From: Promethearchaeota archaeon
GTDB lineage: Archaea > Asgardarchaeota > Lokiarchaeia > Sigyniarchaeales > SOKP01
Direction: 5' to 3'
DNA length: 64,000 nt
Assembly: GCA_030599585.1 (NCBI GenBank)
Contig: JAUVNS010000012.1
Location: 64,001-128,000, forward strand
The translations under genes were made by a program, and so were the position numbers. The notes under the pieces were generated by a model that had not been told where the DNA came from, did no database searches, and saw nothing but the letters and a program-made list of their open reading frames with translations. Below, in pieces: positions 52,763 to 57,624 of this stretch (positions are counted from its first letter, which is position 1; each line of letters starts with the position of its first letter).

Positions 52763-53905
52763 ATGGAAAACGATGAATTTGATCTAAGCAATATAGTAAA
52801 ATCGCGTGACTCAGTTAGGACAAGGTTTAATGAGATAGCGCGTCAAAATGTTAAATCAGCTAATGTGTCAAATCTAGATGACGACACTTATCTAGCAGAT
52901 CTGCTAAAAGTTTTAAAAATTAAGTCTTTAGTTGTTGGAGTCGGTGGAGCGGGGAATAATACCGTATCAAGAATGCTCGACGTTGAGTCTGATTGGATCG
53001 AGACCCTCACTATTAATACTGATGCTCACGATTTATATTACTCAAATTCTAACAAGAAACTTTTAATCGGAAAAGAGATTTGCAACGGACTAGGGTCTGG
53101 TAACGATCCTAGCATTGGTACTGCGGCTGCCGAAGAAGATGTAGATCGCCTTTCTCAAGTGTTAAACGCTGACGTAGTTTTCCTTACTTTTGGCTTGGGA
53201 GGTGGCACCGGTACTGGAGCAGCACCTATTATTGCTCGCGAAGCGAAAAAAAATAATGCCACGGTTGTGTCGTTTTGTTCCGTTCCTTTTAGATCTGAAG
53301 GAGTTGAACGAAGTTTAAGAGCAAGAAAAGGTCTTGAGGAACTTATGAAATATAGTGACACGTTAATCCCTATCCCAAACGATAATCTTCTCCGTTTTAA
53401 CCAAAAACTTCCTGTTCTAGCTGGTTTTAAAATAATGGATGAAGTATTAATTCGATCCATTAAAGAAATAATAAATTTGATAAATAACTGTGGTTTGATT
53501 AATATTGATTACGCAGATGTTAGAAAAGTGTTAGAAAAAAAGGGAAATTATCCTTCTGGGCTAATAGGTATTACAGAATCTATGGGAGAAGAAGTTGATC
53601 TAATAAGAAAGGCTAAACTAGCATTACACAATCCTCTTTTAGAACCTGATACAAAAAAAGTAGACAAATGCATAGTTTCTGTTTCTGGCGATCATCGGTT
53701 ATCCCTATCAAAAATAGACAAAGTTATCTCAACAATTTCCAACGAAATTCCAGAAACAGCGTCTCTTAAATTCGGAACTTCCTTAAATCCAGCTCTCGGA
53801 TCTAAAATTAGGATTATGGCGTTAGGTCGAGGCCCAATCTCGCCGTACGTTCAAGCGGCAATAGATGGGACTGAATTTCCACACTCTAACATAAGCCAAC
53901 TTTAA
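52763..53905 (+). CDS. ftsZ: Cell division GTPase FtsZ
   Basis: GVGGAGNN, NTDA, GLGGGTGTG tubulin signature, PF..EG, PNDNL, T7 loop NIDYADV. Confidence 0.95.
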   Translation: MENDEFDLSNIVKSRDSVRTRFNEIARQNVKSANVSNLDDDTYLADLLKVLKIKSLVVGVGGAGNNTVSRMLDVESDWIETLTINTDAHDLYYSNSNKKLLIGKEICNGLGSGNDPSIGTAAAEEDVDRLSQVLNADVVFLTFGLGGGTGTGAAPIIAREAKKNNATVVSFCSVPFRSEGVERSLRARKGLEELMKYSDTLIPIPNDNLLRFNQKLPVLAGFKIMDEVLIRSIKEIINLINNCGLINIDYADVRKVLEKKGNYPSGLIGITESMGEEVDLIRKAKLALHNPLLEPDTKKVDKCIVSVSGDHRLSLSKIDKVISTISNEIPETASLKFGTSLNPALGSKIRIMALGRGPISPYVQAAIDGTEFPHSNISQL

Positions 53906-53992
53906 TAATATTCTATACAATATCAGAATCTAATAATCTTTTTTCATCCTTCCATAACCTTTTTTTTAAAAAATCCTTATAATTCATATTAA

Positions 53993-54463
53993 TTGCATCA
54001 AGGTGAATCTATAATAGGAAATAAAATGCCTGAAGAAGATTTAAAAAAAGTAATCCGCGATTTTTTAGACAAAAGAAAGATACTCGTACTCTGTACTTGT
54101 TTAGATAATACGCCTCGCGCAACTCCTATGGATTTTTACATGGATAAGAAATCTAATGATTTTAATATATATGTAGGACCTGCTCCTGGGAGAAAAGTAA
54201 AAAATATCGAAGAAAATCCAAATGTCAGTATTGGAATATATACGCCAATGGACACGGGTAAAATACAGGGTATGCAAATTACCGCATCCGGGAAAGAAAG
54301 GCTGATCTTTTTAAAGGAAGGGGATAAAGAATTTGATAAGGTTCAAAAAATAGTGCGGGGAAAAAGAAAGCTTCTCTTGAAGATCATTCCAGAGAAAATT
54401 GAACTTCTCGATTATGATTTTATAAAAGATGGATATTCACGCCTTCAATATTTAGATTTCTAG
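53993..54463 (+). CDS. Pyridoxamine 5'-phosphate oxidase-like flavin-binding protein
   Basis: L.T...P.A.PM, KV.NI..NP.VS..I, GMQI; start probably the ATG of MPEEDL. Confidence 0.75.
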   Translation: MHQGESIIGNKMPEEDLKKVIRDFLDKRKILVLCTCLDNTPRATPMDFYMDKKSNDFNIYVGPAPGRKVKNIEENPNVSIGIYTPMDTGKIQGMQITASGKERLIFLKEGDKEFDKVQKIVRGKRKLLLKIIPEKIELLDYDFIKDGYSRLQYLDF

Positions 54464-54550
54464 TAAAATTAAATCTCTATTTAGAATTTCTTAAGAGTAA
54501 AAGCACAGTTATATTTTTAAGCCCTATTTACTTTATTTTATGTATAATTA

Positions 54551-54701
54551 CGGATGTGGATGTTATGAATGAAAAATCTAAATTTTTAGTTTCAACACCA
54601 AATTTCATAGAGATCATATCCGAGATTATTATTCAGTAAAATCCTTTTCCTCGTGAAACGATTTTCGAAAGAAATATCCACATCCCGTTTCACAGAGAAA
54701 A
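54551..54701 (+). promoter_or_regulatory. Structured ileS leader (candidate attenuator)
   Basis: 54552-54564 pairs with 54673-54685 (13 bp, one GU); 54653-54660 pairs with 54686-54693 (8 bp, extendable); GAAA tetraloop hairpin 54663-54674; TATA-like TTTTTAAG near 54514. Confidence 0.6.
54565..54639 (+). CDS. Putative Ile-rich leader peptide of ileS (MNEKSKFLVSTPNFIEIISEIIIQ)
   Basis: 24-codon uORF with 6 Ile in the last 10 codons, SD-like GGATGTG upstream, ending ~130 nt before the ileS ATG. Confidence 0.65.
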   Translation: MNEKSKFLVSTPNFIEIISEIIIQ

Positions 54702-54768
54702 TTAGAACATTTATACGCTTTTAAACTAAAATTTCAGATAGATACAATAACAACATGAGGTTAGTTAT

Positions 54769-57624
54769 ATGTCATATATTAAAAAGGAAGAAGAAATAAT
54801 TCAGTTTTGGAAAGAAAACAAGATATTCGAAAAGAGCGTCGAGTATAGATCAAAAAACCCCCCGTACATATTTTACGATGGGCCTCCATTTGCCACAGGG
54901 TTACCCCATTATGGAAACATATTAAGTATCGTAACAAAAGATGTATTTCCAAGGTATTGGACAATGAAAAATCATCGTTGCGAAAGAAGATGGGGATGGG
55001 ATTGTCACGGGCTCCCTATAGAAAGCATTTGCGAACGAGAATTAAAAATAAAGCAGAAGAACGAAATTTACGAGATGGGATTAAGTGAATTTAACGAATT
55101 CTGCAGATCGAAAGTTCTATGGTACGCCAATGAATGGAAAAATACCGTTGATCGGATGGGTAAATGGATAGAATTTGATAATGCTTATAAAACAATGGAT
55201 AATTCGTATATGGAAACGATTTGGTTTATATTTAAGAAGATATATGATGAAGGATATGTCTATAAAGGCAAAAAAGTTCTTCTCTATTGCCCTAGATGCG
55301 AAACCCCACTCTCAAATTTTGAAATATCTATGGATAACAGCTACAAGGACATTACCGAAAAATCTGTTATAGCGAAGTTCAAATTAAAGGGTGATTCAAA
55401 TACATATTTACTTGCTTGGAGTACCACGCCATGGACATTAATTGGTAATATAGCGTTAGCAGTAAATAGTAAACTTGATTATGTAAAAGTTAGGGTTGGA
55501 GAGGAATTTTTGATTTTAATAAAAACTAGAATAGATTTAATAGGCGAGAATTATGAAATAGTTGATAATTTTAAAGGAGAATCTTTACTCAATAAACCTT
55601 ATGAACCGTTGTATCAAGTTTCTGTTGATACTGAGAAAGTAGGTCATTTTATTATTGATGGTGGCGAAGAAGTCTTATCAGATGAAGGTACGGGAATAGT
55701 ACATATGGCTATTTATGGTGAATTTGATTACAAAATGATTAATAAGTACGATATGCCGATAATCCAGCATATTGATAAACAAGGTAAATTATCTGACGGT
55801 CCTGATGACTGGAAAGGTATGTGGTTTAAAGATGTCGATAAAGTGGTACTAAATGATTTAAATAGTCGAAATCTTTTATTTGATACAGAAGACTACACTC
55901 ACTCTTATCCTTTCTGTTATAGATGTGATACACCTCTAATTTATAACGCACTTGATGCTTGGTTCATAGAAATTCAGAAAATAAAGGCTAGGCTTCTAAA
56001 AACTAATGAGCGAATCAATTGGTATCCTAAAGAAGTTACGAAAAGATACAAATACATAATAGAAACTGCTCCTGATTGGTGTATATCGAGAAATCGATTT
56101 TGGGCTACAGCGATGCCAATATGGACATGCGTGCATTGTAATACAATTAAAGTAATCGGTTCTGTAAATGAACTTCAAGCCCACGCAATCGAGATTGTTG
56201 ATGATAATCTAGATCTACACAGGCACATCGTAGATGATATTCATTTGAAATGTTCTGAATGTGGAAATATAATGAACCGCATACCTGAAGTTTTTGATTG
56301 CTGGCTCGAATCGGGCTCAATGCCGTTTGCTGCAAAGCATTACCCTTTTGAGAATGTTGACTGGTTCAAGCACAATTTCCCTAGTGATTTTGTGTCAGAA
56401 TATATTGGACAAACGAGGGCTTGGTTCTACTACATGCATGTAATCTCAATTCTGATGTTTGATGAGATCCCGTTTAAAAATGTCGTAGTAAATGGTAATA
56501 TACTCGCTGAAGATGGAGCCAAAATGTCAAAATCAAAAAAAAATTTTGCTGAACCGTCTCTAATAATAGGAAGATACGGAGCTGACGCCTTAAGGATTTA
56601 TCTTATGGCGTCCCAGTTAATGCGAGCAAAAGATTTAAACTTTAAAGAAGAAAGCGTTAAGCAAATCTATCGAAGATTTAATTTACTATTGTTTAATGTT
56701 CTAAAATTTTATTCTTTATTTGAGATTAACAATTTATCTGTAGAAAACTCCAATTCAGAGCATATTTTAGATAAGTGGATTCTAAATTTAGTGAATGATC
56801 TTACTCTGGATGTGACTCAGCGATTAGATGACTACGATACTCAGGAAACAAGCAAGTTAATTATTAATTTCGTTGAAGAATTATCAACTTGGTACATCAA
56901 AAATAGTAGAACTAGATTTAAAAGCGAAATAATAAGCGAAAAGCTAGCAGCGATGAATACCTTGACATACGTACTTCACGTTTTGTCGAAAATCATAGCA
57001 CCAATAACGCCCTTCATTTCTGAAATGATATATCAGAAATTGAAGGAAAGAAATTTAGTAAAATACGAATCCGTGCATTTAGACCTATGGCCAGATTTTG
57101 ATCAAAGTTTATCCGTTCCAAATCTACAGACTAAAATGAATTTAACTAAGGAAATAGTTCAAAAATCTTTGGAATTAAGAGAAAAGGTCAAAATACCTTT
57201 ACGACAACCGCTGAAAAAGATTGTGCTGAAAGGAGTAAGTTTGGACGATGAATTTTTAGATTTAATTAAAAAAGCATTAAATGTGAAAGAAGTTTTAATA
57301 AAAAATGAAGATGCATCTGAATTAACTGTAGAATTGGATACAGAAATCACGAGAGAACTGAAACTAGAAGGAATAGCTAGAAACTTGATAAGAAATATTA
57401 ATAATCACAGGAAGAAAATGAAGCTATCGACGAAAAATAGAATAAGATTATATCTAAATGCTGAAGACGATGATATTTTAGAAGCCATATCTAAACACCA
57501 AAACTACATCAAAAAAATGGTACAAGCAGAAGTAATTTTTAATAAGATAGATAATAATAGAGATATTAAGACATTTAAAGTAAACCAAAGCGAAGTTTCA
57601 ACTTATCTCGAGGTAATAACTTAA
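54769..57624 (+). CDS. ileS: Isoleucyl-tRNA synthetase, type 2 (IleRS2)
   Basis: FYDGPPFATGLPHYGN, GWDCHGLP, WSTTPWTL, DWCISRNR.W, DCW.ESGSMP, GQTRAWFY, KMSKS; type-2 C-terminus LDT.IT.EL..EG.AR. Confidence 0.97.
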   Translation: MSYIKKEEEIIQFWKENKIFEKSVEYRSKNPPYIFYDGPPFATGLPHYGNILSIVTKDVFPRYWTMKNHRCERRWGWDCHGLPIESICERELKIKQKNEIYEMGLSEFNEFCRSKVLWYANEWKNTVDRMGKWIEFDNAYKTMDNSYMETIWFIFKKIYDEGYVYKGKKVLLYCPRCETPLSNFEISMDNSYKDITEKSVIAKFKLKGDSNTYLLAWSTTPWTLIGNIALAVNSKLDYVKVRVGEEFLILIKTRIDLIGENYEIVDNFKGESLLNKPYEPLYQVSVDTEKVGHFIIDGGEEVLSDEGTGIVHMAIYGEFDYKMINKYDMPIIQHIDKQGKLSDGPDDWKGMWFKDVDKVVLNDLNSRNLLFDTEDYTHSYPFCYRCDTPLIYNALDAWFIEIQKIKARLLKTNERINWYPKEVTKRYKYIIETAPDWCISRNRFWATAMPIWTCVHCNTIKVIGSVNELQAHAIEIVDDNLDLHRHIVDDIHLKCSECGNIMNRIPEVFDCWLESGSMPFAAKHYPFENVDWFKHNFPSDFVSEYIGQTRAWFYYMHVISILMFDEIPFKNVVVNGNILAEDGAKMSKSKKNFAEPSLIIGRYGADALRIYLMASQLMRAKDLNFKEESVKQIYRRFNLLLFNVLKFYSLFEINNLSVENSNSEHILDKWILNLVNDLTLDVTQRLDDYDTQETSKLIINFVEELSTWYIKNSRTRFKSEIISEKLAAMNTLTYVLHVLSKIIAPITPFISEMIYQKLKERNLVKYESVHLDLWPDFDQSLSVPNLQTKMNLTKEIVQKSLELREKVKIPLRQPLKKIVLKGVSLDDEFLDLIKKALNVKEVLIKNEDASELTVELDTEITRELKLEGIARNLIRNINNHRKKMKLSTKNRIRLYLNAEDDDILEAISKHQNYIKKMVQAEVIFNKIDNNRDIKTFKVNQSEVSTYLEVIT

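Follow-up and report, generated by a model that had tools for sequence, protein, structure and literature searches.

Leader-peptide attenuation is a textbook bacterial mechanism, and depends on the coupling of transcription and translation. In the attenuators of Escherichia coli (pheM-pheST, ilvL, thrL and trpL) a short leader open reading frame (ORF) carries a run of codons for the cognate amino acid just before its stop, and the position of the ribosome chooses between mutually exclusive pairings of the RNA; with pheM, the target is the gene of an aminoacyl-tRNA synthetase (for background see PMC1262725, PMC5314783). The leader described in this work appears to share these features, a synthetase gene being the proposed target, and its host is an archaeon. 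It precedes ileS2 (54769-57624, plus strand), the gene of a 951-aa isoleucyl-tRNA synthetase (IleRS), in a stretch of 64,000 nucleotides of contig JAUVNS010000012.1 (positions 64,001 to 128,000, assembly GCA_030599585.1) from a Promethearchaeota archaeon, of the Asgard group. The whole stretch is hereafter called the window, and coordinates refer to it unless a contig or locus is given. The leader is made of an upstream ORF (uORF) ending in isoleucine codons and of RNA segments forming three helices, two of which compete for the Shine-Dalgarno (SD)-like sequence of the uORF. We consider it fairly probable that the leader is a cis-acting isoleucine gauge, read by the ribosome, which serves the accessory synthetase IleRS2.

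Upstream regions were collected from 32 distinct orthologous ileS2 loci, the proteins of which are 64-100% identical. An SD-like motif, a uORF of 20-24 codons and the helices described below are found in all of them. An earlier note, made from the window alone, had singled out an Ile-rich uORF at 54565-54639 and proposed to look for it in related ileS leaders: the uORF with its Ile run is kept in every one of the 32. In the window it spans 24 codons on the plus strand, has no Ile in codons 1-14 and six in the last 10, as had been read, and ends with ATT ATT ATT CAG TAA. Its frame is free of stops at all 32 loci, while frames +1 and +2 contain 115 and 75, respectively. The length is 24 codons in 29 loci, 23 in two and 20 in one, and the start codon is ATG in 31 and GTG in one. 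Internal indels are multiples of three, and the sole 1-nt insertion makes a stop directly after the Ile run. In the N-terminal half all three positions of the codons are variable, as is to be expected from a leader the product of which is irrelevant. The putative sensor is the row of three consecutive ATT codons (54625-54633), nucleotide-invariant in the 32 loci, and followed in the window by one codon and the stop, elsewhere by 0-1 codon and the stop. Codons of the run add up over the 32 loci to 98 ATT, 15 ATC (in the fourth position only) and no ATA, whereas ATA is the commonest Ile codon in the remainder of the uORFs (ATA 49, ATT 39, ATC 30); the genome-wide usage is ATT 0.49, ATC 0.18 and ATA 0.33. 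The avoidance of ATA suggests that the run is limited to codons read by tRNA-Ile(GAU), or is also constrained at the RNA level.

One Ile triplet is neither rare nor remarkable, because the genome has 32.6% GC and 9.8% Ile codons. It is the comparison across orthologous loci which tells that the leader is a real, conserved, cis-linked RNA-plus-uORF element, and not a product of chance. A pattern built from three conserved pieces was searched in the family, using the reversed pattern as control. Exactly one match per genome was found in 38 of 135 family genomes, and none with the control. The 38 are essentially the genomes holding IleRS2, and in another IleRS2 genome (G268) the leader differs from the pattern by one mismatch. 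The leader is single-copy in the 4.85-Mb genome, and is always located on the same strand, directly 5' of ileS2. In a 33rd locus, a metagenomic orthologue with 65% protein identity (L146), it lies about 240 nt before the gene. When one mismatch was allowed and the search was extended across the phylum, matches outside the two genera that hold IleRS2 did not exceed noise, being about as frequent as those of the reversed control. At 75 IleRS2 loci from DPANN archaea and bacteria of the candidate phyla radiation (CPR), neither a uORF of this kind nor the motif is found, and inheritance of the leader together with the gene was rejected on this ground.

The uORF is embedded in a set of pairings. 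Segment 1 (54551-54564), the core of which is invariant in the 32 loci, is the SD-like sequence of the uORF. It carries one mismatch to the SD consensus implied by the 3' end of the 16S rRNA of the genome, and is located 6 nt before the AUG; the first G of the core is always 13 nt 5' of the uORF start. Helix A pairs 54552-54564 with segment 4 (54673-54685, core 54677-54685) through 13 bp, including one G-U. Helix B joins segment 3 (54653-54660) to segment 5 (54686-54693) through 8 bp, starting 13 nt after the uORF stop in the window, and 10-13 nt after it in 31 of the 32 loci. The loop of helix B exposes segment 4, which abuts segment 5 without any linker. The two helices are interleaved in a pseudoknot topology, as proposed in the earlier note, which also suggested to look for covariation. 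Both covary: in the 32-sequence alignment helix A is paired in 99.7% of the cells (two changes are compensatory, two wobble-compatible), and helix B in 97.6%, with three pairs showing compensatory changes. No steric conflict is expected between A and B, which could stack into a pseudoknot, as segment 5 directly continues segment 4 and long loops connect the helices. The GAAA-tetraloop hairpin noticed inside helix B (54663-54674) is indeed present in the window, but is not conserved beyond the closest relatives. Similarly, an ORF starting in segment 3 (54653-54724) was discarded, not being conserved outside the nearest relatives.

A third helix, C, had escaped the earlier note. It joins segment 1 to segment 2 (54614-54622), which lies within the uORF and is separated from the Ile run by 2 nt, and hence pairs the SD-like sequence with the codons which just precede the run. 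Cells are paired in 95.3% of the cases, and three pairs show compensatory changes; slid controls gave 26-47% for helix C, and 26-55% over the helices. Helix C is the decisive pairing, the one which gives importance to the position of the ribosome. Segment 1 has in fact two conserved and mutually exclusive partners, which bind it about equally well, with mean duplex energies of -13.7 (C) and -15.4 (A) kcal/mol. Taken alone, the sequence of the window is mildly unusual (the leader fold has a z-score of -2.2 relative to shuffles, 6 of 200 of which fold as well), and the weight of the argument comes from the comparison.

Folding predictions describe a switch. In nascent RNA ending before segment 4, helix C is the dominant predicted pairing in 27 of the 32 leaders. 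Folding with the footprint of the ribosome masked, a check proposed along with the covariation analysis, shifts nearly all loci toward the long-range helix A, which reaches a mean predicted probability of 0.95 when the masked ribosome is stalled on the Ile run. The run ends one codon before the stop, a U-rich tract follows 4-13 nt after the stop, and spacings are fixed. Given these spacings, a ribosome with an ATT codon in the A site would cover segment 2, and a ribosome at the stop codon would have largely released it, merely abutting helix B.

A plausible sequence of events is the following. Transcription would proceed from a TATA-like box (box 1, 54510-54521) conserved in the 32 loci at -48 to -37 of segment 1, and start a few bases 5' of segment 1. 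A ribosome would load on the SD-like segment 1 and translate the 24-codon uORF. With plentiful charged tRNA-Ile(GAU), it would pass the three ATT codons and reach the stop, segment 2 would be uncovered before segment 4 is made, and segments 1 and 2 would pair into helix C, the default state. With scarce charged tRNA-Ile, the ribosome would stall on the ATT run with its footprint over segment 2. Segment 1 would then lack a partner until transcription exposes segment 4 in the helix B loop, helix A would form, and A and B would stack in the pseudoknot. As the output that we favor, the stalled ribosome and the A+B fold could shield the U-rich RNA beyond the uORF from termination at U-tracts by aCPSF1/FttA, allowing read-through into ileS2; in the default state, transcription would stop at the downstream U-rich tracts. 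An output of this kind would resemble factor-dependent attenuators such as tnaC and mgtL more than trpL. In archaea, U-tracts are recognized together with aCPSF1/FttA (PMC8716108). Functionally, FttA is the counterpart of Rho, and a coupled ribosome has been hypothesized to compete with it sterically (PMC11616081). Granted the isoleucine gauge, control of U-tract/FttA-type termination is an output that we regard as plausible, and stop short of calling probable. The scheme rests on the conserved uORF, its fixed geometry, the three covarying helices, the switch predicted upon masking and the strict linkage to ileS2; from there we infer that the uORF is translated and that ribosomes stall on it, where transcription starts, in which direction control works and what the output step is. 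The earlier note had suggested that stalling on Ile codons refolds the leader and turns on IleRS2. The first half agrees with the conserved uORF, the covarying helices and the predicted refolding; as to the second, that stalling would turn ileS2 on is suggested by analogy with known attenuators.

Signals for the transcription machinery are found at both ends of the leader. The motif TTTTTAAG is located at 54515-54522, 30 nt 5' of helix A, where the earlier note had placed a TATA-like sequence. Box 1 motifs are also found before tRNA genes and the gene of IleRS1, the archaeal-type enzyme of the genome, and are enriched 30-65 nt before long ORFs. Box 1 is therefore a probable promoter of the leader, with a transcription start to be placed about 8-12 nt before segment 1. 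A pyrimidine/U-rich tract (54643-54652) separates the uORF stop from helix B, a U-rich stretch of 10-13 nt is present at this place in all loci, and may be a site at which the archaeal termination machinery acts; a similar tract comes after the Leu-run uORF of leuS described below. Helix B is not followed by a U-run, as had been remarked, A-rich sequence being found instead. Further downstream, 25 loci have runs of 5-10 T, at +41 to +62 counted from segment 5. The corresponding AT-rich block of the window (54709-54725), which contains a T4 run, resembles box 1. It may serve as a weak oligo-U site of termination, as a second promoter (P2) driving ileS2, or in both roles. The distance between leader and gene ranges from 75 to about 240 nt, and in the orthologue with the longest spacer (L146) the T-run keeps its distance to the leader, not to the gene.

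Several observations weigh against the scheme. In a nested equilibrium model helix A is already favored in many full-length leaders in the absence of any stall, and consequently the choice between C and A must be kinetic, and be made during transcription. This would favor a decision made co-transcriptionally over a translational switch at equilibrium. Both C and A sequester the SD of the uORF, so that loading of the ribosome would be limited to a short co-transcriptional time window. The subclade to which the window belongs has only T4-T6 runs, or no run at all, downstream of the leader (T4 in the window), and RNAalifold detected no conserved structure next to the T-run, or between helix B and ileS2. 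Finally, most loci have a TATA-like box of the type usual in the genome some 45-55 nt 5' of the ileS2 start, so that ileS2 may also, or only, be driven by its own promoter.

A parallel leader was found by eye in the same genome, on another contig, upstream of the leucyl-tRNA synthetase gene leuS (G000:C21, about 128622-128900, minus strand; L150:4384-4640). It has a uORF of 31 codons with a Leu-rich tail, and a hairpin at the stop of the uORF carrying a U-rich tract in the loop. Seven leuS orthologues were found in the family (L152-L158), and each is preceded by a uORF with a Leu run at its end; compensatory changes occur in the hairpin. No such leader is found upstream of IleRS1 and valS in the same genome. 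A genome scan for the design of the ileS2 leader, with any codon or residue run, retrieved the ileS2 locus only, and was too strict for the leuS leader. Coincidence, or a mere hydrophobic tail, is unlikely since two synthetase genes are each preceded by a run of codons for their own amino acid. Only tentatively do we extend the scheme to a form of ribosome-gated attenuation of Asgard archaea with an archaeal output, in which a stalled ribosome and an SD-swapping pseudoknot would block FttA/aCPSF1-U-tract termination, and a version tuned to leucine would serve leuS.

The same sensor could work at a post-transcriptional level. According to this hypothesis, which we regard as rather unlikely, a ribosome stalled on the leader would act with the A+B pseudoknot to keep 5'-to-3' decay away from the ileS2 mRNA, or to alter initiation of ileS2 translation. 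Stalled ribosomes stabilise the ermC mRNA in Bacillus, and archaea possess 5'-to-3' exonucleases of the RNase J/aCPSF2 type; segment 1 being near the predicted 5' end, this end is engaged in both folds, and the lack of a hairpin-plus-U terminator is in line with an output of this sort. An effect on initiation is opposed by the predicted accessibility of the ileS2 SD (54757-54761, in agreement with the SD core expected from the 3' end of the 16S rRNA) and start, since their unpaired probability is 0.45, 0.46 and 0.46 in the three modelled states, and is unchanged by masking. Moreover, the pairing of segment 4 with the region of ileS2 initiation does not exceed that with control genes (mean percentile 0.26; window 0.53). 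Direct masking of the ileS2 ribosome site, evaluated in nested folds, was rejected on both counts. The variable distance between leader and gene argues against a direct contact, and with helix A as the equilibrium fold of many leaders, an equilibrium translational switch would leak.

The leader could otherwise be a small gene on its own, travelling with ileS2 and encoding either a small hydrophobic peptide, from an mRNA which would conceal its ribosome site by refolding in stages as the type I toxin mRNAs (hok, aapA1) do, or a small RNA, the Ile run being a mere hydrophobic tail. The uORF SD is predicted to be sequestered by a metastable fold and later by a long-range one, which recalls toxin mRNAs, and the leader has a promoter-like box of its own, a T-run behind it, and a second promoter-like box before ileS2. 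We judge this improbable, as the peptide is poorly conserved apart from the Ile run, and the run is invariant in nucleotide sequence and free of ATA. The element is present once, always directly before ileS2 and on its strand; a cognate match recurs in the Leu run before leuS, and nothing alike precedes the IleRS2 genes of DPANN and CPR, which speaks against the arrival of a mobile pair. Type I toxin mRNAs were discarded because of the variability of the peptide outside the run, and the synteny of the single-copy element with ileS2 in 38 genomes. Repeated, mobile or miniature inverted-repeat elements were similarly discarded, as only the locus itself matches in the genome. Least credible of all, in our view, is that the uORF is incidental, and the fold is bound directly by tRNA-Ile, as in T-boxes, or by IleRS2, as in the autoregulation of E. 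coli thrS. Control of synthetase genes of this sort is common in bacteria, with ileS T-boxes as an example (PMC1262725), and the helices are conserved independently of the peptide sequence. Yet, an RNA binding a protein or a tRNA does not need the conserved frame, start, stop position and ATT run found here, and the unpaired regions, U-rich tracts excepted, are weakly conserved and offer no obvious binding pocket. A Rfam scan of 53900-55100, with E up to 10, gave one chance-level lncRNA match only; the T-box covariance model did not match, and a T-box riboswitch was rejected.

The gene downstream has a history of its own. The earlier note had called it IleRS2, and the name proved appropriate: the ORF 54769-57624 encodes a bona fide IleRS (806 bits against the TIGR00392 profile, cut-off 621), and is an extra copy, since IleRS1 (1049 aa, 34% identity) is encoded on another contig of the genome. 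Among 400 genomes of the phylum, the 951-aa form is restricted to the family of the window, where it occurs in two genera (8/41 and 29/54), and is absent from the other sampled families. Near-identical proteins carry the public labels Lokiarchaeota/Promethearchaeota. Outside the family, the nearest relatives are found in DPANN archaea (55-58% identity) and CPR bacteria/Patescibacteria (40-48%). This affinity, and the absence from the other sampled families of the phylum, point to horizontal acquisition of IleRS2 by this Asgard family. IleRS1 and IleRS2 are found together in three family genomes checked. In two genomes which are 99-100% complete (G035, G036) the IleRS1 query found IleRS2 alone, which suggests that in some lineages IleRS2 is a replacement of IleRS1, not merely a spare.

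The start of the gene is not uniform. About half of the orthologues have ATT or ATA in place of the ATG (position aligned with 54769-54771). Such loci (L124, L125, L128-L131, L133, L134, L139-L143, L053 and L146) also have no in-frame stop between the old start and an upstream GTG, which sits inside an SD-like AGGTG, 9 nt 5' of the old start. In these loci the start has probably been shifted to the GTG, or a non-AUG start is used. In several ATT-start loci (L125, L124, L128 and others) another mini-ORF, 3-7 codons long (ATG GAT ... stop), is found just 5' of the ileS2 SD, about 20-45 nt before the ileS2 start; it may be due to chance in AT-rich sequence. In four DPANN relatives a tRNA-Ile(UAU) gene is located directly 5' of the IleRS2 gene, at 20-150 nt and on the same strand (L049:1408-1482, L051:1383-1458, L052:1387-1462, L056:1280-1354). 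This proximity suggests a link between this type of IleRS and the decoding of AUA by the UAU anticodon. In the genome under study, ARAGORN, run on the whole genome with introns allowed, made a doubtful call of tRNA-Ile(UAU), with an insert of 8 nt, beside a tRNA-Lys(CUU), at G000:C4:24081-24181; the tRNA calls were too few and doubtful to settle the set of tRNA-Ile genes.

To our knowledge no archaeal leader-peptide attenuator is known, and a full-text literature search found no published one. The ileS2 leader is probably a real isoleucine sensor, gated by the ribosome, and new for archaea, and provides a concrete, testable case of a covarying cognate-codon leader before a synthetase gene in Asgard archaea. 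Its study could show how archaea, which terminate transcription without hairpins, turn ribosome stalling into gene control, and whether FttA plays the role of Rho. If the scheme holds true, leader-peptide attenuators would be described for the first time in archaea, and the coupling of transcription and translation would have a direct physiological use in the prokaryotes most closely related to eukaryotes. The leader would also mark IleRS2, an enzyme with DPANN/CPR affinity which coexists with the archaeal IleRS or replaces it, as conditionally expressed. This raises the question whether the role of the second enzyme is related to starvation, to a natural IleRS inhibitor, or to a particular tRNA-Ile.

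Compared with the classical bacterial attenuators, the ileS2 leader has, at the sequence level, the leader ORF with the cognate run, and has the alternative pairings, but not the intrinsic terminator. No terminator hairpin with a U-run is found; T-runs are located 16-62 nt beyond helix B, and no conserved hairpin is adjacent to them. The switching segment is the SD of the leader itself, upstream of the ribosome, and the predicted fold of the stalled state is a pseudoknot. The host is an archaeon, the RNA polymerase of which terminates at U-tracts with aCPSF1/FttA. With the ileS T-boxes of Firmicutes and Actinobacteria (PMC1262725) the leader would share the logic of tying IleRS expression to the charging of tRNA-Ile, but T-boxes bind the tRNA directly and have no uORF, and none matches the ileS2 leader. 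In the translational attenuation of ermC and cat, stalling in a short leader likewise re-pairs RNA segments. In ermC, however, the segment released is the SD of the resistance gene; here, nested predictions do not show the SD and start of ileS2 to be sequestered and then freed, and the ileS2 SD is not predicted to take part. Cognate-run uORFs devoid of a classical terminator are known in the polycysteine leaderless uORFs of mycobacteria (bioRxiv 10.1101/834739), and in actinobacterial cys leaders (PMC1262725). These leaders are bacterial, often leaderless, and control biosynthetic operons, whereas the ileS2 uORF is preceded by an SD, is part of a three-way RNA switch, and precedes a synthetase gene. 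The systems which the proposed output would resemble are tnaC of E. coli and mgtL/mgtA of Salmonella. As in these, the putative stall site is next to the leader stop and is followed by unstructured RNA, no intrinsic terminator is present, and the nascent RNA would be shielded from a termination factor, which by analogy would be FttA/aCPSF1 in place of Rho.

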